This document shows positions 1 to 52,245 of a stretch of DNA of 64,000 nucleotides, piece after piece; the stretch's first letter is position 1, and the number at the start of each line of letters is the position of its first letter. The notes under the pieces are model-generated. The model saw only the letters and a list, made by a program, of their open reading frames with translations. It had not been told where the DNA came from and did not search any database. A program made the translations under genes and the position numbers. The stretch is from an uncultured Bacteroidota bacterium (lineage in GTDB: Bacteria > Bacteroidota > Ignavibacteria > UBA10030 > UBA6906), in contig CAVQPT010000009.1 of the NCBI GenBank assembly GCA_963714855.1, positions 31,438-95,437 on the forward strand. The letters run 5' to 3'.

Positions 1-206
1 TTCTTGTCCTCAAACCATTCCTTCATCGCTTCCGGCTCCTTCATAAGTTCTTGCATATCATTCATGGCTTTCAGATGCGCGGCATCGTTCTTCTGAAACA
101 TCTCCATGGCATGCTGTTTGCTCATCCCAGCAATCTCGTCAAAAGTATTTGCGTGAAATGTCTTGTTACAAGCCCCACCGAGTTGTTTGCAGGTCATAGT
201 CTTCAT
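1..206 (-). CDS. DUF1059 family small protein (likely cassette-borne); ATG at 204-206, coding sequence reaches nt 1 so the stop may lie just outside the window
   Basis: Reverse-strand translation MKTMTCKQLGGACNKTFHANTFDEIAGMSKQHAMEMFQKNDAAHLKAMNDMQELMKEPEAMKEWFEDKK matches the DUF1059 family pattern; GGAGGA Shine-Dalgarno 5 nt upstream of the ATG. Confidence 0.55.
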   Translation of the reverse strand, partial: MKTMTCKQLGGACNKTFHANTFDEIAGMSKQHAMEMFQKNDAAHLKAMNDMQELMKEPEAMKEWFEDK

Positions 207-348
207 ACCGTCCTCCATACTGAGATTCAACATACCGAACGCTCTGCATTATGCGCGGGCTGGGCTGGCGTGGACCGTGCACTCTTGGCACGGCCGTGAC
301 AGAACAGACAATTGCCTGCAAGCGGTTGTTGGGCAGAAGCCCCCGCCG

Positions 349-879
349 TCAGGACCCTCCCTTACCCAACACTCTGGCGATCGCGGTGATGGTGTTCCAA
401 TTGCGTGTGGTGACCGGAACCCCAAAGAGTCGGTCGAGTGTGCCCAGGTAGCCGATAGCCTTCATGTCGCGCCGGTATACGCCGAAGACGAACCGATTGT
501 CCCTCGCGAGGATCTTCAGAAACCACTTGCCGCTGGAAGGAAGGCTCATGGGCGTCGACGGCGCCGAGCGGGGGCGGTTGGACAGGATGCTCACGAAGCG
601 GACGATGCCGGGTCGCGCGGGCTGGTCCGCGAAGTGATCTTGAGACATCAGCCTGACAATCTCGCGGCCCTGGCAGATGATGATCTCGGCATCAAAGGGA
701 AGCCCGCGCACCAATTCGGCGCGCAGTTGCGCCCGGGTGACCGGCCGCCGGATCACAAAGGTGCCCGCCGCGCCGATGTTGACGGCGTCGAGATGCTTCA
801 GTTGTCCGGCCAGCGTCGTAGGTCGGAATGTCCTGTGACCGCCGACGTTGACCCCTCTCAGAAAAACCACGAGTGCCAT
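349..879 (-). CDS. DUF1697 domain protein
   Basis: Internal Met start MALVVFLRGVNVGGHRTF... is the typical DUF1697 N-terminus; the track ORF 349..1113 extends upstream from a GTG with no family similarity there. Confidence 0.7.
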   Translation of the reverse strand: MALVVFLRGVNVGGHRTFRPTTLAGQLKHLDAVNIGAAGTFVIRRPVTRAQLRAELVRGLPFDAEIIICQGREIVRLMSQDHFADQPARPGIVRFVSILSNRPRSAPSTPMSLPSSGKWFLKILARDNRFVFGVYRRDMKAIGYLGTLDRLFGVPVTTRNWNTITAIARVLGKGGS

Positions 880-951
880 GCGTCTCCTCTTGCTTGCGCC
901 GCTCGAGACTGGATCAACTCGGCCACCCGATAATTGATCCACCGTCCCGCG

Positions 952-1003
952 TGAGTGCCTAACGTCCAGCATCGCCGGCAGCGCACAGCGCCGTCCGTTA
1001 CAG
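952..1003 (-). other. short degenerate attC-like site (GCCTAAC ... GTTACAG) downstream of the frameshifted flavodoxin-like cassette gene
   Basis: RYYYAAC motif GCCTAAC at about 952-958; internal GC-rich dyad; TAA stop of the 998..1300 ORF lies inside the GTTAC end. Confidence 0.3.
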
Positions 1004-1690
1004 GCTGTTGTTACCTGGTTGTTCACCGGACCGTTCTGGGCTTTGCTGCGGTCGATTCCGCCGCTCAAGCCCGGAGGCTTTCCGGCCCGCTCTTTCGAAC
1101 TCCGGCATGGCACTCCTCTGCAGGCGCTCGGCTAGATCGAGACAGCGGTCGACCAGGGCGCGCGCACCATCATGCAGGTCTGTGCTGTGCTTGACCATCT
1201 CAACGTTGTGTTCCATGTCCTCCGCTGTCCAGCCGCGGCTGTGAGCAATGAACGGAAACTGGCGAAATTGCATGCCCAGTTCGCCAAAGAATAGCATCAT
1301 CTGTCCTGCGACGGCCTGAATGTTGTCCTGTCCCCCCTGTCACTATGACCCCGGCAACCTTGTTGTTCAGCATGACACGGTTCTTCAGCGTGATCTGGTT
1401 CTGCACCGTGTTCAGACGCTCCGCCATCTTGAAGTACAACGAACTTGCCGAACCCCAGCGGATGGGCGTCGAAACCAGAACGACGTCCGCCCAGAATACC
1501 AGGTTCTCATACACCGCGTGCATGCCGTCAGCCGGTTCCCTCTGTGAGATGCTGCACGGCCAGGTACAAGCCTGTGCACTCTTGGAGTAGTAACCTTCGC
1601 AGGCACACGGATATTCGCAAGGGCGACGCGGACCGTGCTCATTCCGGTACTCCGCTACGGCGTCGCGCCTTGACCAGGCAGATGCGTTTC
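998..1690 (-). pseudogene. flavodoxin-like fold / NADPH-dependent FMN reductase (iron-sulfur flavoprotein-like) gene, disrupted by frameshifts
   Basis: Fragments in two frames: ...HAVYENLVFWADVVLVSTPIRWGSASSLYFKMAERLN... (1200..1523) continuing as ...GELGMQF... (998..1300). The frame change falls at a C7 run near 1305-1315. The upstream in-frame region has a Cys-rich stretch but no start codon. Confidence 0.45.
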
Positions 1691-1723
1691 ATAATAGATG
1701 ACTTTCCTGCGGCCCCGGAGCAT

Positions 1724-2110
1724 TCATTGACCTGCGGGCGGCTGCCAAAGCTCGACCTTGTTTCCCTCCGGGTCGATAACCCAGGCGAACTTTCCGTACT
1801 CAGATTCGTCGATCTTGTCCAGGACGTTGCAGCCCTCGTCCTTGAGAATCTTGACCAGCGCGTGCACGTCCTCAACTCTGTAATTGACCATGAAACTTGC
1901 CGTGCCCGGTGCAAAGGAGTCGCCCTCTGCAGGTCCGATTGACCAGATAGTCGTGCCTCCCACCGCATTGCCTTCCCCGTCCGTCCATGTGAATGCGGCA
2001 CCACCCCATTCTTGGACATCGATTCCGAGGTGACGCTTGTACCATGCCCGTAGTCCCGCGGCATCTTTGGCTTTAAAGAAGATACCGCCAATACCAGTAA
2101 CTCGCCTCAT
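1724..2110 (-). CDS. VOC family protein (glyoxalase/bleomycin-resistance-like)
   Basis: 128-aa ORF with typical VOC signature (GIGGIFFKAKD..., ...WVIDPEGNKVELWQ); GGAGAG RBS upstream of the ATG. Confidence 0.85.
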   Translation of the reverse strand: MRRVTGIGGIFFKAKDAAGLRAWYKRHLGIDVQEWGGAAFTWTDGEGNAVGGTTIWSIGPAEGDSFAPGTASFMVNYRVEDVHALVKILKDEGCNVLDKIDESEYGKFAWVIDPEGNKVELWQPPAGQ

Positions 2111-2136
2111 CGTGCTCTCCTCTCTGTAGTTCCAGG

Positions 2137-2265
2137 GCCTAGCGCCTTGCGATTACCTGCGTCGCCGAAGCAAATCATCCTTCAGTGTGATACTGTGGAC
2201 GCGAGAATCCAGGAACTGATCATTTCCAGAGCTTCGGATGCCATCGGCTCCTTGCTAGTCAATTA
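2137..2265 (-). other. degenerate attC-like remnant downstream of the hydrolase cassette gene
   Basis: The plus-strand 5' end GGGCCTAGCGCCTTGCGATTACCTGCGTCGCCGAAGCAAA resembles the conserved end of the attC family (GCCTAACGGTCGCGCCTTACCTGCGCCGCGAAACGAA); the high-coordinate end is poorly conserved. Confidence 0.25.
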
Positions 2266-3291
2266 CTCGCCGGGCAGCCCAGTCCGGCATCTCTGGAAAA
2301 CGTGGTTCAGGTCGTCCAGTTCGGCCACCATGAAGGCACTATTACCTCCCTCGCGCAACGAGCTTTCAATGGCGACAAGGTGCTCTTTCGCAGGAATCTG
2401 TACATCTTTGCTGCCGTTGATCGCGAGAACAGGGCATTGCACCCGCGTCAGCATGTCCGCCGGATTATCGTCCATCGATTCGAGGACCTGCAGCGATCGC
2501 ATAAATGCGAGATATCCATCCACATTGTCCAGGTGAAAGAGGGTCCTGGATTCTGCACCCATGAAGCTCGCGATCTCTGCAAGGAGCCTTTTTGCTTTTT
2601 CCGTCTCTGAAGCCGACATCGTTTTCCTCGTGTAGAGTGGCCACATCTCATCGTACAACTGCCTGATGCGGACGACATCTCGTTCACCGAACCCCGACGC
2701 CCGTGCGATAGCGATGCTCGATGCGCACGCGAACTCCTTACCCCAGACCCCCGGCGCCGCCATCAACACAATGAATCCCACGTCGGAGGAACGCGTCGCC
2801 ATAGCGGGCACAATCAGCCCGCCCTGGCTGATACCGAGCGCGCCAATCCGCTTGGGGTCTATTGCCTCCTGTGCCTTGAGGAAGGCGATTCCTGCCAGCG
2901 CATCATCGACGAAGTTCTCAATGTCGTACGGCTCGTACTTTCCTCCCGATTGTCCACATCCACGTTTGTCATAACGGATCGTCGCCACGCCATGACGGCT
3001 CAGGTAGTCGGCGATTGTAAAGAACAGGCGATGCTTGCCAACCTGGACGTCACGGTCGTGTGGTCCGGAGCCTGCAACGAGAACAACCGCCGGGAAAGGT
3101 CCAGAACCATTGGGCAGAGTCAGAGTGCCCGCTGGCTGAATCCCATCAATGAAGTTCCGGAAGGTGATCGCTACTTCCTTGTAAGGGGAGCTGGCATCTT
3201 GCTCGGCACAGGACAAGGCCAGTGCACAGAAAGTGACTAAGAGAAGGGCAGTGGGATGTGTCTTCGGACGGAACACGGCCACCTCATCCAA
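2263..3291 (-). CDS. alpha/beta hydrolase lipoprotein (cassette-borne)
   Basis: 342-aa ORF with lipobox LALSC, GxSxG-type hydrolase core (GISQGG); track start is TTG at 3289-3291, only 3 nt from the GTCTAAC core, so the true start is uncertain (GTG at codon 4 or 6 possible). Confidence 0.8.
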   Translation of the reverse strand: MDEVAVFRPKTHPTALLLVTFCALALSCAEQDASSPYKEVAITFRNFIDGIQPAGTLTLPNGSGPFPAVVLVAGSGPHDRDVQVGKHRLFFTIADYLSRHGVATIRYDKRGCGQSGGKYEPYDIENFVDDALAGIAFLKAQEAIDPKRIGALGISQGGLIVPAMATRSSDVGFIVLMAAPGVWGKEFACASSIAIARASGFGERDVVRIRQLYDEMWPLYTRKTMSASETEKAKRLLAEIASFMGAESRTLFHLDNVDGYLAFMRSLQVLESMDDNPADMLTRVQCPVLAINGSKDVQIPAKEHLVAIESSLREGGNSAFMVAELDDLNHVFQRCRTGLPGE

Positions 3292-3294
3292 TCT

Positions 3295-3457
3295 GTCTAA
3301 CGGCTGCGGCTCACCTGCGCCGCGAAACGAATTGGGTCTTTTGAAAACCGCAACGAACCCAAAAAGCCACTGTCAACATCTCCGCGCACCGTGTACTTTT
3401 CCTACGGTCCTTTCCGCCTCCGCACCCACCACGCGGCGTCAGGTGCAACCGTTTGAT
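3295..3457 (-). other. attC recombination site, family A (belongs to the inverted brnTA cassette)
   Basis: Plus-strand GTCTAAC (3295-3301, RYYYAAC) ... CACCTGCGCCGCGAAACG ... CGCGGCGTCAGGTGCAACCGTTTGAT (to 3457); about 85% identical to the elements at 6093-6260 and 7107-7273; lies between two genes. Confidence 0.6.
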
Positions 3458-3467
3458 GGGGGGCATG

Positions 3468-3496
3468 TTGACATTGTATACTAAGCGCCTTACAGT
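3468..3496 (+). promoter_or_regulatory. putative sigma70-type promoter for brnTA (TTGACA-17-TACAGT), would give a nearly leaderless brnT mRNA
   Basis: TTGACA at 3468-3473, TACAGT at 3491-3496, brnT ATG at 3502. Confidence 0.3.
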
Positions 3497-3501
3497 GTCT
3501 T

Positions 3502-3780
3502 ATGGATATCACCTGGGATCCGCACAAGGAACGCAGGCTGCGCAAGGAGCGGGGAATTGAATTCCGCGGGGTCCCTGATTTGATCAGCGACCGTAAGTAT
3601 ATTGCCATCCTGCAGAATCCAAGTCGACCGTCTCAGTTTATCTTCATCCTTCCCTACCACGGCTACACCCATGTGGTACCATTTATCATAGGCAAAGATG
3701 AAACGATTGTGCTAAAGAGCGTATTTCCCAGTCGAAAGTTCCATCAACTCTATGGAAAGACTAATGAAGACGAAGCTTGA
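3502..3780 (+). CDS. brnT: BrnT family toxin (DUF497, RelE-like ribonuclease)
   Basis: MDITWDPHKERRLRKERGIEFRGVPDLIS... matches the BrnT/DUF497 N-terminal signature; overlaps the downstream antitoxin gene. Confidence 0.8.
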   Translation: MDITWDPHKERRLRKERGIEFRGVPDLISDRKYIAILQNPSRPSQFIFILPYHGYTHVVPFIIGKDETIVLKSVFPSRKFHQLYGKTNEDEA

Positions 3781-4018
3781 TGCCGCCGAACTGAGTATCG
3801 AACGCTCTGCTGGCTCCTATCGCCCCGTCTCGTCAAAGGACAGGAAGCACATTGAGGTCATTCTGACCCGCTCGCGCAAAAGCAGGAGCATCACTATTCG
3901 TATTTCTGAACCCACTCTGGCAGAGCTCAAGCAACGTGCTGAACGTGAGGGGCTACCCTATCGAGACCCTCGTCTCGAGCATTCTTCACAAGTATGTAAC
4001 CGACCGCCTCGTGGATGA
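3752..4018 (+). CDS. brnA: BrnA antitoxin (CopG/RHH-like), frameshifted near the 3' end; the conserved C-terminus ...TLVSSILHKYVTDRLVDEEA is encoded in the +1 frame up to about 4064
   Basis: ...ITIRISEPTLAELKQRAEREGLPY then in-frame junk RDPRLEHSSQVCNRPPRG*; the +1 frame from about 3963 reads ETLVSSILHKYVTDRLVDEEAVTKSLRFLRSAE*, which is the canonical BrnA tail. Confidence 0.7.
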   Translation: MERLMKTKLDAAELSIERSAGSYRPVSSKDRKHIEVILTRSRKSRSITIRISEPTLAELKQRAEREGLPYRDPRLEHSSQVCNRPPRG

Positions 4019-4099
4019 GGAGGCAGTCACCAAGTCTCTTCGTTTCCTTCGTTCAGCTGAGTAGTCCCGCGCGCGCTTGTCCACCGCATTACAGTCGTG

Positions 4100-4185
4100 C
4101 CCAATTGATCATGCCCACTCACGGCCGGTTTCAGCGGCGTTGCGGAGCGCAGCGAAGCAGCGACCGCTGCAACCCGTTGTTAGGT
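4100..4185 (-). other. attC-like site of the ADH cassette (divergent sequence type)
   Basis: GTTAGGT core at 4179-4185 overlapping the ADH TAA stop (ACCTAAC on the coding strand); imperfect dyad CAGCGGCGTTGCG...CGCAGCGACCGCTG; low-coordinate boundary not resolved. Confidence 0.35.
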
Positions 4186-5169
4186 TTTGTTACTATGTTC
4201 CACAGTTATTACTACATTTCCTTTCTTGTGCCCTTTTTCAACATAGCTATGGGCCTCGGCAATTCGTTCCAACGGATAGCGTCTATCCATGACCGATTTT
4301 ATCTTTCCCGCCTCAATAAGCCCTTTGAGCTCTTTGAGGAAGACTAGACGCTCTGGAACGGGTCGAAGGCCTGTGGCCGAAAATACGACTTTTTTGTTGC
4401 CAATTTTTGAAGTCCATAGCATTTGGCACATAATTGCAAACGTAGGGGCAGTAGAAAGATAGACACCTTTTTGCGTCAGCGAGCCTTTACAGCGTGAAAA
4501 TGAGCTCTTGCCTACCGTATCAAAAATGGCATCATAGGTCTGGCCGGTTTTGGTAAAATCCTCTTTAGTGTAATTAATTACCTTATCCGCACCAAGAGAT
4601 TTCACCAATTCTAGATTCGTGGTACTGCATACCCCGGTAACTTCCGCCCCAAAGTACTTGGCAAGCTGTACCGCAGAAGTGCCTACCGATCCAGAAGCGC
4701 CATTGATAAGAACTTTTTGCCCGCTCTGAATATTTGCCTTGTCTCTAAGGAAATTCCATGCTGTTAATGCCCCATCACAGACGGGGGCGGCTTCCTCATA
4801 GGTCATATTCGCCGGTTTTATTGCCACCACTCCTTCTTCGGGCAGACATATGTACTCGGCATAAGCTCCAAAATTAATCTCGGTAGATCCAAACACTTGG
4901 TCGCCTTCTTTAAATAGCTTTGCATCTTTGCCTACTGCTTCAATCTCACCGGCTAGCTCAACCCCAAGTATAGGGTTCTTTGGTCTTATGAGACCAGTGA
5001 AAAATCTTGAAATAAATGGGTCACCCTTTCGATTAGCACAGTCACTTGGTGTTGCTGTTGTCGCATATATTTTTATCAGTACTTCGTTGTTCCTGACAGT
5101 AGGTTTTTCTACCTCTTTGAACTGAAGAACATGAGGTGATCCGTATTCTGTGTATACAATCGCTTTCAG
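4180..5169 (-). CDS. zinc-binding MDR-family alcohol dehydrogenase / quinone oxidoreductase, apparent CTG start
   Basis: Track ORF 4180..4896 starts at an internal GTG. The same frame continues upstream as (L)[37 protein letters not shown]... (GroES-like N-domain) with no ATG/GTG/TTG. An AGGAGA Shine-Dalgarno lies 6 nt upstream of CTG at 5167-5169. Low GC (~42%). Confidence 0.75.
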
Positions 5170-5247
5170 GAGTTATCTCCTAATCTGGTTTTGTTTGTTG
5201 TCCATTATTGGAATAGTATACAACAATACATCCTGCAAGCCTGCAAA

Positions 5248-5374
5248 ACCTAAAGGTCGCGCCTTCCCTCGCCGCGAAACGACCGCATAATTGCAAGCGA
5301 CCAACATCTATAACAGACTTTCGTGACGACCCCGATGCCCCAGACGCGGCGTCAGGTACGGGCGCTGGTTAGGT
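5248..5374 (-). other. attC recombination site, family B
   Basis: ACCTAAA...CCTCGCCGCGAAACGACCGCATAATTGCAAGCGACCAACATCTATAACAGA...CCCCAGACGCGGCGTCAGGTACGGGCGCTGGTTAGGT; GTTAGGT core 5368-5374 contains the TAA stop (5369-5371) of the upstream membrane-protein gene; about 90% identical to the 8015-8153 element. Confidence 0.6.
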
Positions 5375-5986
5375 TGCCACCTTTGCTGCCCCCTGCGGAA
5401 ATCCCTTGAACCTCCAAATGACTACGATAATGGCATATATGGAAAATGCAATTGAGAGTACGAGGAAGGTCCATGTAACGAAACCACCTACAGTGAGCGC
5501 AATGTGAAATAGATCACCTCTAAAGCCTGTAGCAAATCCAATGGTTTCACATACTAAGTCAAAAGTCGGTCTCAAACACAGCAACATGAAGAGAAATCCA
5601 ATTAGAAAAGCGTTACGAAAGAGTTTCCGTTGAAGAACGTAAACGCCAATTGCAATACTCACCAGATCGAGAAGGTAAGGTGAGATAGTCATAATCAACT
5701 GGCTCCATTCGTTGGTGACGCCTACTGCTTTGATCCACGCCCCAGCAGTCTCTCCAGCCCAAAACCTGGGAATGAGTTTGACTTCGACAGTCTGAGCACC
5801 AACAAGGTATGCGCCAAGCAGATGGCTCAATTCATGTATAGGCGCGTAGACGAAATACCACAGTATCGGAATGGTAGACATGCACGCCACCATCGTTTTG
5901 GGTTTCCAAGTTCCCCTTAGATAGAGCACAAGAAGGGGAGCAACGACGGTGAAGAGTATTTCGAAAGTGATCAGTAGATGGCTCAT
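5369..5986 (-). CDS. integral membrane protein (hypothetical, cassette-borne)
   Basis: 205-aa ORF with about 6 predicted TM segments; low GC; stop codon embedded in the attC core. Confidence 0.6.
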   Translation of the reverse strand: MSHLLITFEILFTVVAPLLVLYLRGTWKPKTMVACMSTIPILWYFVYAPIHELSHLLGAYLVGAQTVEVKLIPRFWAGETAGAWIKAVGVTNEWSQLIMTISPYLLDLVSIAIGVYVLQRKLFRNAFLIGFLFMLLCLRPTFDLVCETIGFATGFRGDLFHIALTVGGFVTWTFLVLSIAFSIYAIIVVIWRFKGFPQGAAKVAT

Positions 5987-6092
5987 GACATTTTACGGAC
6001 TCCCTTGAGCCTATGTCGTCGATTGGGCAAGAGCCACCAAAGTTACCAAGAATGCACATCTCATGATTGGGGACTCCTCCTTTTTCGCGGCA

Positions 6093-6260
6093 ACCTAACG
6101 GCCCCTCTTCACCTGCGGCGTGAAACGAATTGGGCCTTTTGAAAACCCTCAACGAGTACCCAAGAAGCACCTTGTAACACCACCCCGTCCCTGCACTGTG
6201 CCTCCGGGCCTTTCCACCTCCGCTCCTGCTCGCGGCGTCAAGTGCAGCCGCTGGTTAGCG
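6093..6260 (-). other. attC recombination site, family A (orphan; no intact ORF between it and the next attC remnant)
   Basis: ACCTAAC (6093-6099) ... CACCTGCGGCGTGAAACGAATTGGGCCTTTTGAAAACC ... CGCGGCGTCAAGTGCAGCCGCTGGTTAGCG (GTTAGCG 6254-6260). Confidence 0.55.
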
Positions 6261-6399
6261 TCTCCACCACACCTTCGGCGCGGTTCTTTCCGATACTCGG
6301 CTCATTTTGCACAGGAATCAAGTCGTTCATTGTCAACAGGTTACAATGAGCTGCTTGGGAGGCAGCAACCCGCCGTGAGCCGGTTGGGGAACAACATTC

Positions 6400-6477
6400 T
6401 TGTCCACACCTCCATTTACCGCCGCGAAACTGCAGAAGAGTGCAGGGCCTGACCCCGCCGACCGATTCATTCTCTCA
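6400..6477 (-). other. partial/degenerate attC remnant immediately downstream of the 6475..7071 gene
   Basis: CACCTCCATTTACCGCCGCGAAACTGCAG resembles the conserved CACCTGCGCCGCGAAACG arm; the other arm is missing. Confidence 0.25.
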
Positions 6478-7071
6478 TGCGGATGTGGGGGCTGAATCTG
6501 AGGGATCGATCGCAGGCGTCCTTCGCAACCCCGCCAGCTGTCGGGCTGCTGAAGATATTCCCGCAATCGCAACGCCCAGCATGAACATGGAAGCCGAGCA
6601 TATCGCCATCACGATCAGGAAGATAGTCAGAGCAACATAGCGACCCATCTGAATGATGTACCCGGTGCGCAGATGGAGATAGAGCTTGCCGTGAAGTCCG
6701 CGACGAGCAGCTCTATAGCCCAGGAGATTGCCCAAATGAGTTGTGATCACGATGAGGTATAATCCCCAGACGTAACCGATCAACAGCACACGAAACTCCT
6801 CCGGGATCCACACTAGTCCCAATGCCACAACCACACTAAGAATTGCCGCCGGAACAATATGCCTCGGATCGACGATTCGCCGGGCCAACACCGCCTTCTG
6901 ATACAGAGGGTTTCCTTCAATGGTGTTGATCGGATAACTTTCATAGTGCTCGGAATAGTGCAGTTGACGCTCGCGTTCCTGGCCGATGGTAAGCAACCAA
7001 TCGCTCCACATCAAAAAGAATGTGACGACGCCTGTTACCCAGGGTTGGCCTGCAAACCATTCAATCATCAC
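6475..7071 (-). CDS. integral membrane protein (hypothetical, cassette-borne)
   Basis: 198-aa ORF with multiple TM segments; GAGGTG RBS 5 nt upstream of ATG at 7066-7068 (track start is GTG at 7069-7071). Confidence 0.6.
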   Translation of the reverse strand: MMIEWFAGQPWVTGVVTFFLMWSDWLLTIGQERERQLHYSEHYESYPINTIEGNPLYQKAVLARRIVDPRHIVPAAILSVVVALGLVWIPEEFRVLLIGYVWGLYLIVITTHLGNLLGYRAARRGLHGKLYLHLRTGYIIQMGRYVALTIFLIVMAICSASMFMLGVAIAGISSAARQLAGLRRTPAIDPSDSAPTSA

Positions 7072-7106
7072 GGCACCTCATTAATGGGGTGAGTCAGTGC
7101 ATTGCT

Positions 7107-7273
7107 GCCTAACGGCTGCGGCTCACCTGCGCCGCGAAACGAATTGTGTCTTGTGAAAACCCGAAAAGGGTACCGCAAAAAACCACTGTCAATACGTCCG
7201 CGCATCGTGTACTGTGCCTAAGGTCCATTCAGCCTCTGCACCCGCCTCGCGGAGTCAGGTGCAGACGTTTTTT
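7107..7273 (-). other. attC recombination site, family A
   Basis: GCCTAAC (7107-7113) GGCTGCGGCTCACCTGCGCCGCGAAACGAATTGTG ... CGCGGAGTCAGGTGCAGACGTTTTTTT (to about 7273); the MepA-like gene stops at 7283. Confidence 0.6.
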
Positions 7274-7282
7274 TTTGGCCGC

Positions 7283-7999
7283 TCAGTTATCCATCGTAAA
7301 GTCTATATGATAATGTTCGTCGTGCCGAACCCACGCGGGCTTTGTTGAGAACTTCATGAGACTCGGTAGGTTCTGCCCCCCCTTGGATGCAATGAGATGT
7401 TTCTGCAAAGTGGCGTCGAATATCACGACCTTGATGCCAACGCCGTGCTTCAACGCACTGTCATGAATAGCTTTGAGGTGAGCAGCCATCGCTTCAAAGT
7501 CAATAGAATAGGTCCGAGTCTTTCCCGCTGAATCGAATTCCACCGAATATCCGAACTCGTTGAAAATGTTTGTAGGAAGCACGGTTGGTGTCCCGTCTGC
7601 AGTGTTCACCGGAACCATGAAATCCACGGAAAGTCCATTTTGATGCGTCTTGTGAGGCCAGAATTTTCCTCCGTGAGGCCAACCCGTCTCGCCGTAGACG
7701 AACCTCCGGTGAGGACGAGTTTCCGCAAGCCGGGAGTATGCCTCCAGGATGGTAGCCTTTACCTTGTCGTGAACGCACGTTCGGCCGATGAGACTGCCCA
7801 ACCGAGAATATGTTGTGAAGTTAGGCCCGGACGACGGTAGCCTCTTGGCATTCTCAATTGAGCCGGTCGATGTTGTCCCCCGACTTATACTTGGAGCATC
7901 TGATTCGAATGCGATCAACACATAGTTCCCCCAGCAAACGATCGCAGTAAGTGCCACACTGAGGGCAACCAGTCCGAGAATAACTCGCTTCATCCTCAA
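7283..7999 (-). CDS. penicillin-insensitive murein endopeptidase (MepA / peptidase M74, LAS-type)-like protein
   Basis: 238-aa ORF with signal peptide; motifs ...HQNGLSVDF... and ...WVRHDEHYHIDF... resemble the MepA metal-binding region; track start is TTG, ATG at codon 3. Confidence 0.6.
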   Translation of the reverse strand: MRMKRVILGLVALSVALTAIVCWGNYVLIAFESDAPSISRGTTSTGSIENAKRLPSSGPNFTTYSRLGSLIGRTCVHDKVKATILEAYSRLAETRPHRRFVYGETGWPHGGKFWPHKTHQNGLSVDFMVPVNTADGTPTVLPTNIFNEFGYSVEFDSAGKTRTYSIDFEAMAAHLKAIHDSALKHGVGIKVVIFDATLQKHLIASKGGQNLPSLMKFSTKPAWVRHDEHYHIDFTMDN

Positions 8000-8014
8000 G
8001 AGTTCACATTCCTC

Positions 8015-8153
8015 AGCCTAGAGCGGCCTAACGGTCGCGCCTTACCTGCGCCGCGAAACGAATGCTTAATTGCAAGCAACCAACATCTATAACAGATTAC
8101 GGTGACGACCCCGATGCCCCAGACGCGGCGTCAGGTACAGGCGCTGGTTAGCG
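8015..8153 (-). other. attC recombination site, family B
   Basis: GCCTAAC (8015-8021) GGTCGCGCCTTACCTGCGCCGCGAAACGAATGCTTAATTGCAAGCAACCAACATCTATAACAGA ... CGCGGCGTCAGGTACAGGCGCTGGTTAGCG (GTTAGCG 8147-8153). Confidence 0.6.
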
Positions 8154-8173
8154 CAGCTAAGCCTGTCGTCTCA

Positions 8174-8689
8174 TCAATGATTGGGGTTCAGTGCGTTTGG
8201 CTCGCGACCTATAGCCGCAGCTGTGTCCGGTGGCATGATGAATAAGTAGTCATGGCCCAACGCTCCACCGAAAACTGCGCCGCAAAATCCACCCAACGTG
8301 ATGCTTCCCATCAGAAGGAATCCCTTCCCCATTCTTGCGTCTCCCCCCGATCCCATTCCGGTGCCAGCGACAAGACCGAAGGCAGCGCCACCGAGCCCTC
8401 CCAGCATCATCCCCTCCATCGCGCCACCGCCATGATGTGTCACTCGTACCGATGCGACGTCTCGAGAACAAACAGAAAGCTGACTGTCGCTTCGTGGATC
8501 CGTGAAGCGCGTTGTATCCTCACCAAACATCAAATGCTCGGCTTCAAGGGCTACACCTGAACGAAGCATCAGCACCGCAGAACTTTCCTGAACTTTGTGA
8601 TTCGCGTCCATTGGCGACCGCAAAGGAACTGTCGTCGTGCAACCTGATGCAAAGATGCACACGAAGACCACGAGCACAATTTGTCTCAT
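8174..8689 (-). CDS. glycine-zipper lipoprotein (hypothetical)
   Basis: 171-aa ORF; lipobox ASGC; Gly-rich membrane-associating segment GLGGAAFGLVAGTGMGSGG; GAGG RBS 5 nt upstream of the ATG. Confidence 0.55.
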   Translation of the reverse strand: MRQIVLVVFVCIFASGCTTTVPLRSPMDANHKVQESSAVLMLRSGVALEAEHLMFGEDTTRFTDPRSDSQLSVCSRDVASVRVTHHGGGAMEGMMLGGLGGAAFGLVAGTGMGSGGDARMGKGFLLMGSITLGGFCGAVFGGALGHDYLFIMPPDTAAAIGREPNALNPNH

Positions 8690-8711
8690 GCCGGCCTCAT
8701 CAATCTGCCAC

Positions 8712-9215
8712 CTATTCCAACAGTACGCCCGAGAGTTTCAGCGACAAGTACACTCTCGAATCGCCCCTCTTGTCGATTGCGCCGTTCGCCAGTTGAATCC
8801 TGTAGGGAAGCGGCGCGATCGCTTCGATCACAGCACATGCAGGAGGCATGCTTGAAGAATATGCCCACCAGAATGTCCCGAGATAGATACGATCGTTCCC
8901 GACGGTTACCACGAAGGGGACACCGCGTGTTGTTCCATGTGCCAATAGAAACTGCTCATATAGTGCACGCGCACTCTGCATAAGTGTAAAGGCATGCGTT
9001 GACCAGACATAGGAGTTCAGGTCATGGACGTCCAAGAGTGCTGAGTCGGCCAAGGCCAAGCTCCCGATCGGTTGCGAGAATGCATCGTTTGCGGTTAGTG
9101 TCGAGTCCCTTAGAAGATAGATTGCGAAAGAGCCTTCCGGGAATTCCTGATCTGACGTTGGGAAAGGGCACGCGAACAAAAGCACCGAGCATGAGATGAC
9201 GACGATGTATTTCAT
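8712..9215 (-). CDS. lipoprotein (hypothetical), first gene of the attI-proximal two-gene cassette
   Basis: Internal ATG (9213-9215) gives MKYIVVISCSVLLFACPFP... (lipobox) with a GGTGGAG RBS; the longer track ORF 8712..9425 would overlap the intI start and the attI core. Confidence 0.5.
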   Translation of the reverse strand: MKYIVVISCSVLLFACPFPTSDQEFPEGSFAIYLLRDSTLTANDAFSQPIGSLALADSALLDVHDLNSYVWSTHAFTLMQSARALYEQFLLAHGTTRGVPFVVTVGNDRIYLGTFWWAYSSSMPPACAVIEAIAPLPYRIQLANGAIDKRGDSRVYLSLKLSGVLLE

Positions 9216-9247
9216 GGCAATCTCCACCGAGTTCAATCGAGGCTGCC

Positions 9248-9412
9248 GCCTAACATTTAGTAGGTTATAAATTGAGATCGAAAGTGCTGGGGTTGTTGTG
9301 GTATATGTTTGCGTGTAGTCCGCTTGAGGGGCGGGAAATACTGCGCGCTGACAACGATGTGCCCCACACGAGAGGGATGGGCTGCGAGTAATTCCAAGAA
9401 TCCACCGCGACA
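9248..9412 (-). promoter_or_regulatory. putative attI site and divergent Pc/PintI promoter region
   Basis: GTTAGGC core (plus-strand gcctaac 9248-9254) about 33 nt upstream of the first cassette gene's start; AT-rich stretch between the first cassette and the intI ATG at 9413. Confidence 0.35.
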
Positions 9413-10134
9413 ATGCCACCACCAAAACTCCTCGACCAAGTCCGTACTACCGCCGCCCTCCGACACCTCAGCCCCCGAACTATAGAAGCATATGTCCAGT
9501 GGATCAAATGATTCGTTCTCTTTCATGACAAACGACACCCACTCGAAATGGGCGCACCAGAAATCCATACGTTCCTCTCGCACCTCGCACAAGCCCTCAA
9601 CGTCTCGGCGTCGACCCAAAATCAAGCCCTCAATGCGCTTGCATTCCTCTACCACCAAGTCCTCAAACGTACGCTTGGCGAACTCGGAAACCTCCCCCGC
9701 ACCAAGCGGCAAAAACGCCTCCCCGTTGTCTTTTCCCCGGCTGAGGCGCGACAGGTTCTCTCCTGCCTCACCGGCGTCGAAAACCTCATGGCATCCCTCC
9801 CTACGGGTCAGGCCTCCGCCTCACAGAATGCATCTCGCTTCGCGTAAAAGACATCGATCTCGACAAACACCTGATCCTTGTCAGACAGGCTAAGGGAGAA
9901 AAGGATCGAGTCACAATGCTCCCCCACAGTATCTTGCCAAGCCTCTTCCGTCAGCTCGAAACCGTCAGGGAAATCCACCACCGCGATATGCTCGATCAAT
10001 ACGCCGGCGCTACATTCCGGGAATCTCTCGAACGAAAGTACCCCAATGGACCACGAGAGCTCGCCTGGCAATACCTGTTCCCCGTCCTCACCAAAGGTGG
10101 CCTGGCTGTCCGAAGCCCGCTGGATGAACCGTGA
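9413..10134 (+). pseudogene. intI: integron integrase intI remnant: in-frame TGA, frameshift, and internal deletion of the catalytic region
   Basis: MPPPKLLDQVRTTAALRHLSPRTIEAYVQWIK*FVLFHDKRHPLEMGAPEIHTFLSHLAQALNVSASTQNQALNALAFLYHQVLK...RLPVVFSPAEARQVLSCLTGVENLMAS / frameshift / PPYGSGLRLTECISLRVKDIDLDKHLILVRQAKGEKDRVTMLPHSILPSLFRQLETVREIHHRDMLDQYAGATFRESLERKYPNGPRELAWQYLFPV-LTKGGLAVRSPLDEP*. This aligns with IntI1, including the IntI-specific ALERKYP segment. About 85 aa carrying box II and the catalytic Tyr are missing. Confidence 0.8.
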
Positions 10135-10659
10135 GTAGCAGTGGTTGTGATACATGGAGGTTCCCCCCGGGAAAGGTCTGTACCACCCGCCGGTCAAAGT
10201 TCGACGCCTGACTGTTGCAGAAATATAGAGATGATTCAGCGGCTTGTCAAGACCACCACCCGGGAAGCCCTGGCAGAGAAGAACTGACAACCAGATGCAC
10301 CTTCGCACTCCTCCTGTATATCGCCGTCAAGATTCTTCTGACAACTCCGACCTGTGCTTGCTGCTGCAATTTGCCTTTGCGTTTCTCCCCCATTCCAAGT
10401 ATCTTGCTGCGTAACGATCGTGTTCGCAAGGAGCCCCCGGTTCTTCCGTGTATCATGTCCCTCGAGCCCTTCAAGTCCGGCAAACTCATCGCCGAACTGT
10501 AGAGGGAACCCGGCCTCACCCATGTCATCACGCTGGCATCCAACGAGAACCCGCCCGGGGTAACCCCGCATATACAGACGCCCCCGGCGGGGACATGCTC
10601 CCGAAGAACGAAGGACTCTTGTGATCGGACGCCCGATCCTCTCATCGAAGGAAGAGATC

Positions 10660-12540
10660 ATGATGCTAAGAAGTGTCTCGCGGATCACAGCGCCACTGTA
10701 TGTTCTGTGTCTGTTGTTCCCGCTTTCCGTTGTGGCAGAAGACAATAATCAAGGAGCCATGAGAATGGATTCGAAGCAGAAGGTGATCTTTACCTGTCCT
10801 ACCAACAGTATGGAGGAGTTCCGTCGATTGGCCAGGCAGGCGGCCGAATTGGGTGCCACCCACGTGGCGATCAGCGACCTGCCGAAAAGCCGATGGCAGT
10901 GGGAACTGGACCTGAACGATCCGTATCCCACCTGGGGGATGCTCGTCACATCGATATTCAAAGTGGTGGTGCCCGAGGAATTGAAGCCATTCATTCCTGC
11001 CGACTATGCGAAGAAGAATCTGCAGATCGTAAAGGAACGATGCGTCATACTGAAAGAGTTGGGATTGAAAGCAGCGTTCTTTGGCAAAGAGCCGGCGTGG
11101 CTGCCGGAAGCGGTGTATCAAGCTCATCCGGAATGGCGCGGTCCACGCTGCGAGCATCCGCGACGCGCACGGCATACCTATTATGCACCCTGTATCGACC
11201 GGCCGGAAGTGCTGGCCATGTATCGCAAGGCGGTGGCGGAGTTGTGTCGCCAGGCACCCATCGAGGTTTTTTCCTTGTTGACTAACGATTCCGGTGGCGG
11301 CATCTGCTGGAGCGTCAGCCTCTATCCCGGCCAGAACGGACCGTCATGGTGCGAGAAACGATCCTATGCCGACCGTGTCGTCGGATTCATATCCACCATA
11401 CAAGACGGCGCCAGGGATGCTGGCCTGCAAGCCGAGGTTTCCATGAACTATGGCTCCGGCTATATCTCGCAGGCCGAAGTGGCATCGGTGATCCCGCTGC
11501 TCAAATCCGGGCAGGCACTCAATTTCAAGACCCGGGACGAATCCGTGCCAACACGTACCATCGGCTACAATTTTTACATCAGCGGTGTCGGTCCCGTCCT
11601 GGGGATCCCCCAAGTCTTCCGGGTCGCGGAGCAGTTGCAGGACGCCTCGAGCGATCAGACGACAAACCGGACGTTCATGATGGATGAGGCCAACGCGCCG
11701 GAGTACTTCGAACTGGTGCGTCAGTTCCGCAACAACCCGGCCACAACCATGATCGGTCGTATGCAGAACATTTTGCGCACTGCGGAACATTTCGCCGGTC
11801 CCGAAGGTGCACATCACCTGATGCAGGCATGGGACAAGATTGGCCGGGCAGCGTTGATCGTACACAATCTATCCGGCGATCCGCTCATGCTCGTCGGCAC
11901 AGTCAACCAGCGCTGGATCACCCGACCACTGGTACCGTTCCCCATGGAGCTGACGCCGGAAGAGAAGGACTATTACCGCAAGTACCAGTTCCAGTCCAAC
12001 TCCGAGGAAGAAGCAGCGGACCTGATGAATCTGCAGGGATTCGAGGTGATCAACGGATTCTCCGGAACGATGATCGCTGGCACCCAGTTCACGCAGGCGA
12101 TCGCACTGCTGCAGTCGGCCATTGACGATCTCGGCAAGGTAACGAAGGCACCGGACGATCAATGGGCAGTGTTGCAGAACAGAGTGCGGACGTTGGTCTG
12201 CTTCTATCGCAACGTGCTTTACACCAGCCAGTACCAGGACATCCTGGACCGGTCGGACTATTCAAAGCCACCTGTCGAGCAGAACATCTATCCCATGGAT
12301 GGTGATCAGCTCCTGCGGGAGATTCAGATCGTTACCCGGCACGACATTGACAACACCAATGAACTGATCCGGTTACTGGAGACAAGCAGGGTGCCTCTGG
12401 TGCAAACGGCGCCGACCAAAGAGGAAGAGGAGATATTTACCCTGGGTCCGGATCTCATTGATCAATTGAAAAAGAAGGTGGCGATCACACTGAAGCATCA
12501 ACTGGAGGTGCATCGGTTGTATCACCGCCGACAGGGGTAG
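10660..12540 (+). CDS. secreted hypothetical protein (signal peptide)
   Basis: 639-aa track ORF; AAGGAAGAG RBS before ATGATG at 10660; N-terminal signal peptide MMLRSVSRITAPLYVLCLLFPLSVVA. Confidence 0.6.
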   Translation: MMLRSVSRITAPLYVLCLLFPLSVVAEDNNQGAMRMDSKQKVIFTCPTNSMEEFRRLARQAAELGATHVAISDLPKSRWQWELDLNDPYPTWGMLVTSIFKVVVPEELKPFIPADYAKKNLQIVKERCVILKELGLKAAFFGKEPAWLPEAVYQAHPEWRGPRCEHPRRARHTYYAPCIDRPEVLAMYRKAVAELCRQAPIEVFSLLTNDSGGGICWSVSLYPGQNGPSWCEKRSYADRVVGFISTIQDGARDAGLQAEVSMNYGSGYISQAEVASVIPLLKSGQALNFKTRDESVPTRTIGYNFYISGVGPVLGIPQVFRVAEQLQDASSDQTTNRTFMMDEANAPEYFELVRQFRNNPATTMIGRMQNILRTAEHFAGPEGAHHLMQAWDKIGRAALIVHNLSGDPLMLVGTVNQRWITRPLVPFPMELTPEEKDYYRKYQFQSNSEEEAADLMNLQGFEVINGFSGTMIAGTQFTQAIALLQSAIDDLGKVTKAPDDQWAVLQNRVRTLVCFYRNVLYTSQYQDILDRSDYSKPPVEQNIYPMDGDQLLREIQIVTRHDIDNTNELIRLLETSRVPLVQTAPTKEEEEIFTLGPDLIDQLKKKVAITLKHQLEVHRLYHRRQG

Positions 12541-49748: not shown

Positions 49749-51053
49749 ATGCAACAATTCTGGGCGTTCATCTATAGTGTCCTGTTCATCCCACTGTTCT
49801 GGACGACCCTCCATATCCTCAGCCTGGCCCAGTCCAAGATCCGCCGCGGCATTCGCGGACGCAGGGGGCTCTTCCAACATGTGACGGCCGGAATGCAGAC
49901 GCTCGGACCCGGACCACGCATCTGGTTCCACTCGTCATCCATGGGTGAGTTCGAACAGGCGAAACCGATCATCGCCGCGCTGAAGAGCAGAATCCCTGAC
50001 GTGCGGATTATTGTGACCTTTTTCTCCCCCTCCGGGTATGAACATTCCCGCACCTATCCCCTCGCCGATGTCATCGCGTACATTCCGTTCGATTCGCGGC
50101 GGGGCGCCCGGCGGTTTCTCGATATCGTCCGACCATCGGTCGCCGTCATGGTGCGGTATGACATCTGGCCCAATCACATCTGGGAACTACGTCGCAGGTC
50201 GATTCCCATTCTCCTGGCCAATGCAACGATGAGCCGGCTGACACTGCGCCGTTTTCCGCTCCTCCGCTCGCTCCACCAGCACATCTATAATGATATCGAT
50301 GCCATTCTCACCGTGGCGCAGAGCGATGTCGAGGCCTTCCTCCCCTTCGGTCTGGATCGGCCGAAGATCGAAGCGATCGGCGACACGCGCTACGACCAGG
50401 TCGTTGCGCGGAGTGTCGAAGCACGCAAACGAAATCTGATCCCCCCCGCGGTCCTGCAGGGAAAACGGGTGCTCGTGGCAGGAAGCAGCTGGCCTGAAGA
50501 TGAAGAAGTCCTCATCCCAGCATTTCTCGCCATGCGGCGGGTCGTGCCGGATATCCTCCTCCTCCTGGTCCCGCATGAGCCGACGGTCGAGCACCTCGAA
50601 GAAATCGAGCAGAAGCTCGAGGGCCAGGTTTCTACGATCCGGTTTTCGGGACTGAACGAGTACCGCAATGAACAGGTGATTCTCGTGGACAGCATCGGCA
50701 TCCTGCTCGTCCTCTATGCCTACGCCCACATCGCGTACGTCGGAGGAAGTTTTCGTCAGGGAATCCACAACGTCCTTGAAGCTGCTGTGTACGGCATCCC
50801 TGTCCTTTTCGGACCGAAGCACAGAAATTCCCATGAACCGATTCTCCTGGTGGAGCGCGGAGGAGCCTTTGTTGTCAATGACAGCGATTCCCTGGAACGC
50901 GCGGCAACGAACCTCTTCCAGGACAATGCGGCACGCATCACAGCAGGCGAACGCGCAGCGTCATTCGTCCGGGCAAACACAGGAGCAACCGACCGCTTCA
51001 TGCACTTTATCGAACCGTATCTCTCGCAGGCACGGGGGACCGACCACATATGA
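49749..51053 (+). CDS. waaA: 3-deoxy-D-manno-octulosonic acid (Kdo) transferase
   Basis: 434 aa; ...WFHSSSMGEFEQAKPIIAALK... is the conserved KdtA/WaaA motif. Confidence 0.85.
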   Translation: MQQFWAFIYSVLFIPLFWTTLHILSLAQSKIRRGIRGRRGLFQHVTAGMQTLGPGPRIWFHSSSMGEFEQAKPIIAALKSRIPDVRIIVTFFSPSGYEHSRTYPLADVIAYIPFDSRRGARRFLDIVRPSVAVMVRYDIWPNHIWELRRRSIPILLANATMSRLTLRRFPLLRSLHQHIYNDIDAILTVAQSDVEAFLPFGLDRPKIEAIGDTRYDQVVARSVEARKRNLIPPAVLQGKRVLVAGSSWPEDEEVLIPAFLAMRRVVPDILLLLVPHEPTVEHLEEIEQKLEGQVSTIRFSGLNEYRNEQVILVDSIGILLVLYAYAHIAYVGGSFRQGIHNVLEAAVYGIPVLFGPKHRNSHEPILLVERGGAFVVNDSDSLERAATNLFQDNAARITAGERAASFVRANTGATDRFMHFIEPYLSQARGTDHI

Positions 51054-52245
51054 AAATTGCGTATTTCGACACCATCGCTGGGATCGCCGGCGATATGACC
51101 ATGGCGGCGTGTGTCGCGGCAGGGGTCCCCATCGATATTCTGCGCAACGAACTCCTGAAACTCAATCTCTCCGGATTCGAACTTGACGCCCGGCATGTGC
51201 AGCGGAGCGCCATCGATGCCGTCCATTGCGATGTCACCATCATCGAACAGCCGCACTACCACCGGCACCTGAAAGACATCCTTGCCCTCCTCGGCAGCAG
51301 TGCGCTCTCCCCCACCGCAAAAGACCGCGCCACCCGTATCTTCACCCTCCTTGCCGAGGCGGAGGCGAGGGTTCACAATACGACAGTCGAGAAAATCCAT
51401 TTCCATGAGGTCGGCGCCCTGGATGCCATCGTGGACATTGCGGGAGTTGCAATCTGTCTCGAACTCCTGGGCATCGAGCAGGTGTACTCATCGCCGGTCC
51501 GTCTTGGCAGCGGCGGGACCATCCGTACCGAACACGGCCTTCTTCCTACGCCGGCACCCGCAACAGTGGAAATACTCCGGAATTATCCTGTGATTCTGAC
51601 CTCGATCCCCGAGGAGCTGACGACCCCGACTGGTGCCGCCATTATCAAAGCCCTGTCCGCCGGTGTTCTCGATGAAGAGACGATCACGATCGAAACGGTT
51701 GGGTACGGGGCGGGAACCCGTGAGATCGAGGGGAGGCCGAATCTCCTCCGCCTCGTTGTCGGAACACTCGACCAGGACACTGACCGGGATGCCTCCATCG
51801 TCGTCGAGACGAACATCGATGACATGAATCCCCAGATTCATCCATACATTATCGACCAGCTCCTGCAGGCGGGTGCCCACGATGCGTATCTGATCCCCAT
51901 CATCATGAAAAAGGACGGCCGGGAATCCTGCTGTCGGCGCTGACAGACGCACAACACCTCGATGCTGTCACCCGCATTGTGTTCCGCGAGACTCCATCTA
52001 TCGGGTTGAGGATCCAGCACGTCGGCCGGCGTAAACTGCGCCGTCGTCCGATGACCATGACGACATCCTTCGGCCCCGTCCGCGCAAAGGCAATCGAACG
52101 CGATGGTGTAACTGTTGTCACCGCCGAATTCGAGGAATGTAAACGCATCGCCATTGAGAAGTCGTTGCCACTCGCGGATGTCATGCGCATCATCAACTCC
52201 GAACTCCGCTCATCCTCATCCACATCCGGGGAATCATCACCATGA
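51050..52245 (+). CDS. larC: LarC-family nickel-insertion protein (DUF111), split by a frameshift in an A-run near 51915-51925
   Basis: N-terminal ORF 51050..51943 ends ...IIMKKDGRESCCRR*; shifting one base in the AAAAA(G) run restores ...IMKKGRPGILLSALTDAQHLDAVTRIVFRETPSIGLRIQHVGRRKL..., which continues as ORF 51979..52245. Confidence 0.7.

Follow-up and report, generated by a model that had tools for sequence, protein, structure and literature searches.

An integron-integrase pseudogene with three lesions beside attI and five attC sites in a chromosomal setting

The 64-kb stretch of DNA that we analyzed, referred to below as the window, contains at 9413..10134 on the plus strand an integron-integrase (intI) pseudogene, the repaired conceptual translation of which has 240 aa, versus 320 aa in intact relatives. 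Very probably this is the decaying intI of a chromosomal integron, which ancestrally encoded a 320-aa integrase, has received three lesions, and whose array would no longer recombine unless there is a second integrase. To judge from its sequence, the copy is a pseudogene of the IntI family and not a functional member of it.

The chromosomal position is marked by a conserved flanking gene of 591 aa downstream of intI (10765..12540, plus strand), which matches no Pfam family. Two relatives carry an intact intI of 320 aa at the window's position and in the same orientation, beside the same flanking gene: a 471-kb ENA contig, L001 (flanking gene 92% aa identity, 11 near-identical attC sites), and the NCBI assembly GCA_030835135.1, L083 (87.5% aa, three attC sites). 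A third relative, the ENA contig L082, has neither intI nor attC sites, and its flanking gene is 95.6% identical at the aa level.

The integrase pseudogene and its three lesions

Several lines of evidence identify the gene as intI. Firstly, the repaired translation matches the NCBIfam integron-integrase model TIGR02249 with E=6.8e-78 over profile positions 1-221 of 315. The score, 262.2 bits, falls just below the curated cut-off of 265 because the deletion described below took a third of the protein; the intact syntenic relatives score 439 and 436 bits, and the XerC and XerD models give the repaired translation only 64-67 bits, far under TIGR02249. Secondly, Pfam family PF13495 (SAM-like N-terminal core-binding domain) is matched at residues 6-89 with E=4.9e-28, and PF00589 over the first half of the catalytic domain. 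Thirdly, the best solved structure is that of VchIntIA (PDB 2a3v), with E=3.4e-48. The segment ALERKYP...W.YLFP, which sets IntI apart from XerC/D-type recombinases, is present, and SLERKYPNGPRELAWQYLFP aligns to VchIntIA 206-224 and to TIGR02249 up to position 221. Furthermore, the closest database proteins in BLASTP are intact 320-aa integron integrases with 68-73% identity; over aligned columns, identity is 71-75% to the eight closest intact relatives (320-324 aa) and 64% to two more distant ones. Those close IntI relatives that have an organism name on record are all Ignavibacteria MAGs.

Read from the ATG at 9413 (MPPPKLLDQV...YVQWIK*FVLFH), the frame comprises MPPPKLLDQVRTTAALRHLSPRTIEAYVQWIK, a TGA at 9509-9511, and then FVLFHDKRHP...ENLMAS, and the integrase match resumes one frame over as YGSGLRLTECISLRVKD...WQYLFPVLTKGGLAVRSPLDEP*, ending at 10134. 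The reading frame is interrupted, therefore, by the TGA and by a change of frame at about 9800. Tblastn with four intact relatives as queries against the 64-kb window (both strands, all frames, E<=10) gave three collinear pieces, corresponding to residues 1-132 (9413-9808, frame 2), 131-225 (9802-10086, frame 1) and 305-320 (10084-10131, frame 1). The original prediction, namely that intI carries three separate inactivating lesions and that one of them has removed the catalytic C-terminal region, was fully borne out by these matches together with the protein and DNA alignments.

The first lesion, evident from the ORF reading and the alignment, is the in-frame TGA stop at codon 33 (9509..9511, plus strand). 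It had been predicted to replace the residue aligned with an Ala of IntI1, which holds for IntI1, but the nearest relatives have Arg there: the column is Arg (WIKRF) in all ten of the closest intact relatives aligned. As the two syntenic relatives read CGC in this column, the nonsense change would most simply have arisen by CGA to TGA. We could rule out an alternative genetic code for TGA from stop-codon usage: TGA is the commonest stop in the window, where it terminates 21 of the 38 long ORFs, some of them genes of at least 800 aa, and the standard code therefore applies, with TGA taken as a stop.

The second lesion is a 1-nt deletion, and hence a -1 frameshift, at 9797..9802 on the plus strand, seen both as the tblastn shift from frame 2 to frame 1 and as a single-column gap in the DNA alignment, in which the window reads tccctcc-ctacggg and the relatives read ATCCTCTACGG (MASLLYGSGLRL). 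The frameshift falls between MASL and LYGSGLRL, just upstream of the box I catalytic Arg. A -1 frameshift had been proposed in a short C-run around 9795-9805, and one base is indeed absent between 9797 and 9802.

The third lesion, found in the alignments and by tblastn, is an in-frame deletion of 240 nt (80 codons) with its junction at 10083..10086 on the plus strand. WQYLFP runs straight into VLTKGGLAVRSPLDEP*, a 100% match to the 16 C-terminal residues of the relatives P0001-P0004. The lost block corresponds to residues 225-304 of both P0001 and VchIntIA, the numbering of which is in register. VchIntIA (IntI4 of the Vibrio cholerae superintegron) belongs to the same family and is matched over its residues 8-225; unlike the window copy, however, it is intact and active, whereas the window copy lacks H267, R270, H293 and Y302. 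Thus, four of the six active-site residues (both residues of HxxR, the second His and the nucleophilic Tyr) have been deleted. The only ones left are the box I Arg, R136, and the hairpin Lys, K161, so that in this intI copy the active site of a tyrosine recombinase (R, K, H-x-x-R, H/W, Y) is no longer complete. It had been estimated that some 85 residues were gone after WQYLFPV; the loss of HxxR and of the Tyr stands, but the size is exactly 80. Nor does the deleted segment lie downstream in another frame, because residues 226-304 of the four intact relatives gave no other match in any frame of the 64-kb window at E<=10. The microhomology at the junction is just 1-2 nt (C-G), and we discarded a repeat-mediated origin of the deletion on account of so short an overlap, which does not allow a mechanism to be named.

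A tyrosine recombinase without its Tyr nucleophile cannot cleave DNA. The deletion alone would be fatal, because the tyrosine-recombinase mechanism needs the nucleophile that has now been deleted. The earlier view that the array can no longer be rearranged by its own integrase would thus follow from the chemistry of these enzymes, given that the Tyr and three further active-site residues are gone. The sequence of events that we envisage starts from an ancestor whose intI encoded 320 aa, as do the intact copies that two related genomes have retained at this locus. This lineage would then have been hit by three mutations, namely the nonsense mutation at codon 33, the 1-nt deletion at about codon 130 and the 240-nt deletion with almost no junction homology, which would have left the product of the locus unable to cleave and join attI and attC DNA. 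As a result, the excision, capture and reshuffling of cassettes would have ceased at the array, unless a second integrase is encoded elsewhere in the genome.

Support for the lesions and their age

It could be argued that the lesions are sequencing or assembly errors, and that the organism has an intact 320-aa intI. Exact-sequence look-ups retrieved a second public assembly of the region, a k-mer-based Logan contig of 2277 bp from run ERR12037370, which contains three exact products: the 171-aa cassette protein, that of a 151-aa ORF antisense to intI at 9260-9712 and that of a 115-aa antisense ORF at 9811-10155. The start and stop spacings of all three ORFs are identical to those in the window. 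The 115-aa ORF crosses the deletion junction and is identical in the Logan contig, and the 95-nt gap between the two antisense ORFs, which covers the frameshift site, is unchanged. Therefore, both the frameshift and the deletion are reproduced in the second assembly. The exact-protein look-up cannot discriminate the TGA, because base 9509 is a synonymous third position of a Ser codon (TCN) in the antisense ORF and likewise of an Asn codon (AAY) in the sense ORF that overlaps there. Thus, of the two interruptions for which support was in question, the C-run frameshift gains it, as does the deletion, but the TGA cannot be cross-checked in this way, which leaves some room for error at that codon. 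The Logan contig may derive from the window's own sample, in which case its independence would extend to the assembler and not to the population.

One more gene of the window, larC, is split by a frameshift at an A-run, and this too would be in line with errors in the assembly. However, the larC split matches a known programmed frameshift between LarC1 and LarC2 (PMC13510736), and more than 20 other genes of the window are intact with full-length matches, among them those for SerRS, FBPase, PriA, MurB, a sigma-54 activator and the 591-aa flanking protein. Furthermore, the frameshift in intI lies outside any long homopolymer (tccctccc), and a clean 240-nt deletion without a flanking repeat is atypical of a collapse artefact. 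Together with the agreement of the k-mer-based assembly on frameshift and junction, this makes it very unlikely that the lesions are errors, and we treat them as real.

The larC gene (nickel insertion protein, PF01969) occupies 51050-52240 on the plus strand. Its ORF at 51050-51943 covers profile positions 1-285 of 375, and from atg aaa aag gac (G AAA AAG G) onward the conserved continuation GRPGILLSALTD... is read in the -1 frame. The shift site, at about 51906-51913, coincides exactly with the LarC1/LarC2 boundary, at which a programmed ribosomal frameshift has been reported in Lactiplantibacillus plantarum (PMC13510736). The split in the window may reflect recoding that is conserved as far as a distant phylum, or else a homopolymer error.

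The gene caller used for the second assembly annotated two antisense ORFs, of 151 and 115 aa (9257-9712 and 9808-10155, minus strand), in place of the intI pseudogene, and these are now in protein databases; they are almost certainly spurious. The locus is best annotated as an integron whose integrase is dead (a CALIN-like array), and not as two or three small "XerD-like recombinase" ORFs or as antisense ORFs.

The extent of divergence bears on the age of the inactivation. With L083 as the outgroup for the branch comparison, as indicated by the flanking gene, the window branch of intI has 33 unique amino-acid changes versus 10 on that of L001 (p=6e-4). Unique codon changes, given as nonsynonymous/synonymous, are 22/34 for the window versus 6/26 for L001 (p=0.058). 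The flanking gene, taken as a control, displays a milder asymmetry in the same direction (26 versus 15), and the asymmetries of the two genes do not differ significantly (Fisher p=0.23). Among the 57 columns that are conserved at >=95%, three are altered in the window intI; intact homologues have a mean of 0.9 altered conserved columns, and three or more are altered in 10 of 98. As L001 and L083 form the closest intI pair (76% nt identity), the window intI could come from a more distant lineage rather than having evolved faster. It looks as if constraint has been relaxed only mildly and as if the branch was mostly under purifying selection, and from the mild relaxation in the surviving codons the inactivation looks fairly recent.

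These data also bear on the possibility that intI is still expressed, by TGA read-through combined with ribosomal frameshifting, as a 240-aa, catalytically dead, DNA-binding protein that regulates or stabilizes the array. On the one hand, the 240-nt deletion preserves the reading frame, the last 16 residues and the native stop, and the surviving codons are largely constrained, as the counts of unique codon changes and of altered conserved columns indicate. On the other hand, one in three deletions is in frame by chance, and recent inactivation accounts equally well for the residual constraint. Moreover, TGA is the genome's main stop codon, the frameshift site has no slippery heptamer, and a single protein would require two extra recoding events. 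We find continued expression hardly credible, and a fairly recent loss of the integrase is the reading that we follow below.

The attI site, attC sites and cassettes

The setting of the pseudogene is chromosomal: the window includes the housekeeping genes serS, priA, murB, a hisF-like gene and kdtA, and a T9SS (type IX secretion) sorting domain is encoded nearby, which, with the Ignavibacteria names among the close IntI relatives, makes the FCB group the probable group of the host. The attI core is located at 9248..9254 on the minus strand; read on the cassette strand it is GTTAGGC, embedded in CGCCGCCTAACAT..TAGGTT, and it is conserved with L001. The sequence CGCCGCCTAACATTTAGTAGGTTAT upstream of intI, which contains this GTTAGGC crossover box, is kept in that relative. 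The arrangement is that of an integron, with attI directly upstream of intI and with attC-bounded cassettes that run away from it on the opposite strand.

A covariance model (R1), built from the 11 attC sites of L001, detected exactly five attC sites in the 64 kb, all of which are on the minus strand and to the left of intI. By length, one class has 128 nt and the other about 170 nt. The site closest to attI, attC 1 (8022..8155), is of the 128-nt class, has the R' box GTTAGGC, scores 141.9 bits (E=9e-33) and is well folded (z=-2.9); it shares 94-98% identity with nine of the 11 attC sites of L001 and 88-90% with the remaining two. The sites of the longer class, attC 2 (7103..7281; 36.3 bits, E=8e-7), attC 3 (6089..6262; 30.5 bits, E=2e-5) and attC 5 (3291..3463; 51.4 bits, E=1.5e-10), score lower with R1; attC 2 is also recovered by the repeat families D1-D3 and D5, and attC 3 by repeat families as well. 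The remaining site, attC 4 (5244..5376; 110.4 bits), is of the 128-nt class and is eroded: its R' box is TTTAGGT, so that the crossover G is lost, versus GTTAGG kept in all 11 attC sites of L001, and its L' arm has a 1-nt deletion and its stem is weaker (fold z=-1.2). The other four keep the canonical GTTRRRY box and a paired stem.

To the left of position 3291, as far as position 1 of the window, we found no convincing further attC site, and the array could run on beyond it. A weak half-remnant of a possible sixth site, with GCTAGGC for GTTAGGC, lies at 2136..2169 on the minus strand (65% identity to family D1), and is missed by R1. A short candidate at 1018-953 (R1 E=0.16) was rejected, as shuffled sequences fold at least as well (z=+0.24).

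attI and the five attC sites delimit five cassettes on the minus strand (3464..9247, from ORFs and attC positions). The first, between attI and attC 1, contains two ORFs (8712-9215 and 8174-8689) of 167 and 171 aa, which are 22 nt apart, have lipoprotein-like signal peptides and match no Pfam family; a cassette with two genes is unusual. The next three ORFs, all on the minus strand, are at 7283-7999 (Peptidase_M74-like), 6475-7071 and 5369-5986. The fifth cassette encodes a zinc-type dehydrogenase / quinone oxidoreductase at 4180-5163, also on the minus strand, with the open frame extending to 5172. No ATG, GTG or TTG stands at the head of this open frame of 331 codons (4180-5172); after a good Shine-Dalgarno sequence, AGGAGA, it reads CTG AAA GCG ATT where MKAIVY would be expected, and the start codon has probably been lost or weakened. 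An alpha/beta hydrolase ORF at 2263-3291 on the minus strand comes after the last attC site, outside the range of the cassettes.

A sigma-70-like promoter, TTGATC-17-TATAGT, is predicted by consensus match at 9479..9507 on the minus strand, inside the 5' end of intI and directed toward the cassettes; the search gave two sites versus 0.6 expected in shuffled sequences. Its position is presumably comparable to that of Pc in class 1 integrons. A promoter of the class 1 Pc type itself (TGGACA-N17-TAAGCT) was dismissed: TGGACA is present antisense to codons 28-29, but GGGGCT stands at the -10 position, 17 nt off. The nonsense codon of intI lies 2 nt upstream of the -35 box of the promoter match, on that strand.

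Given that the pseudogene is real, the array might still not be frozen if a second, intact integron integrase encoded elsewhere in the genome acted on it in trans. More than one fifth of integron-containing lineages have more than one intI (PMC2426708), the attI core is intact, and four of the five attC sites keep their box and paired stem. Against this, the 64-kb window contains neither a second intI nor any other tyrosine recombinase, one attC site lacks the crossover G and part of its stem, a state shared by none of the 11 sites of L001 with its active-looking integrase, and the array is short, with five sites versus at least 11 in L001. We consider action in trans unlikely, and return to an array that stopped recombining with the loss of IntI. 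The original prediction spoke of a frozen record, and this is plausible to the extent that the site at 5376-5244 has eroded, although a second integrase acting in trans would be compatible with continued change. The erosion of attC 4 fits decay after the loss of the integrase, a fit that rests on one site.

Comparison with relatives and with known integrons

In L001, at least 11 attC sites of 133 nt occupy positions 1-8156, and the array runs into the contig end. Compared by blastn, each of them is 82-98% identical to the window's two sites of the 128-nt class. The second class of the window, of about 170 nt, is absent from these 8 kb. The window and L001 have no cassette in common, and hence the cassette content has evidently turned over after the two lineages split, while the attC type stayed. 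Searches for an intact allele from the same species gave a best match of 58%, a partial one, in GTDB representative genomes and of 68% in JGI metagenomes. Some tblastn matches in the GTDB and JGI tables reach query residue 239 within about 730 nt; these seem to be weak extensions across the junction, and we did not retain them as cases of a shared deletion.

Although L082 has the closest flanking-gene relative, its homology to the window begins only at window position 10326, about 190 nt downstream of the intI stop. At 9368-9601 of L082, before the homology (9572 onward), there is a fragment of 77 aa similar to transposases (HTH_Tnp_1, IS3-type OrfA-like), which suggests that the integron was lost in association with an IS, or that this is a rearranged copy. 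It is conceivable, though improbable, that the window, L001, L083 and L082 make up a natural decay series within one uncultured lineage of the FCB group, all descended from a single chromosomal integron. An intact integrase and a long, very homogeneous set of attC sites would come first, followed by an integrase that has only just died and whose array is short, mixed and eroding, and lastly by a locus with an IS fragment but no integron. If true, such a series could be used to measure the rate at which attC sites and cassette genes decay after the loss of IntI.

It has been shown in a genome survey that pseudogenes, disabled by a stop, a frameshift or a major indel, make up nearly one third of intI genes but only 4% of those in Vibrio, and that Xanthomonas strains have intact and broken intI orthologues side by side (Nemergut et al. 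2008, PMC2426708). The window copy resembles these chromosomal-integron pseudogenes in that it has a stop, a frameshift and a major deletion, lies in the chromosome beside an array, and has intact as well as broken orthologues. It differs from them in that it joins all three types of lesion in a single gene, and in that its host is uncultured and probably belongs to the FCB group, with an IntI that shares only 45-55% identity with most of the proteobacterial loci compared. The intI2 gene of class 2 integrons also has an internal stop codon (PMC2426708). There, as in the window, a premature in-frame stop silences the integrase and the cassette array persists; however, the single stop of intI2 can be suppressed and activity returns, whereas the catalytic residues of the window copy have been deleted, so that no such rescue is possible.

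The array can also be compared with CALIN. A recognizable intI pseudogene is nearby in 15 of 279 CALIN, and loss of intI has been proposed as one origin of such elements (Cury et al. 2016, PMC4889954). With five attC sites, and with a pseudogene as the only intI, the window has the features that define CALIN (at least two attC sites and no functional intI within 4 kb). The likeness extends to size, about five attC sites being the average for CALIN (PMC4889954), and to a decayed intI within 10 kb; unlike CALIN, the window still has a well-preserved attI, and the N-terminal two thirds of its intI are in a similar state, with the IntI-specific segment among them. Because these parts survive, IntegronFinder might call the array either way.

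The original prediction likened the array to those of sedentary chromosomal integrons, a likeness that is loose, since such integrons often have active integrases and two relatives are intact here. Operationally, a sedentary chromosomal integron is one that is present in all genomes of a species or has >19 attC sites (Cury et al. 2016, PMC4889954). The window contains five attC sites, and the arrangement of intI and flanking gene is present in L001 and L083 and absent in L082, in a comparison of few genomes.

The locus is an ordinary event of a known phenomenon, in a lineage in which it was previously undescribed. It adds one more case to the frequent loss of integron integrases, here in a poorly sampled lineage, and leaves the current view of integron function unchanged. 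Taken along with the syntenic relatives that are intact, the locus could serve as an example for dating the decay of attC sites and cassettes after integrase loss.

Among 160 IntI loci, about 16-20 have stops, frameshifts, insertions or truncations. One of these, an unrelated intI pseudogene of Planctomycetota (L029 10086-10091, MAG contig CAWFRS010000001.1, 52% identity), has a TAA in the very alignment column of the window's nonsense codon (YVDWIK*Y in L029, YVQWIK*F in the window, 9506-9511). One such coincidence with about nine other internal stops among the 160 loci has a probability of about 3% by chance, for an observation made post hoc. Codon 33 could perhaps be a favored site of inactivation, tied to cassette expression.
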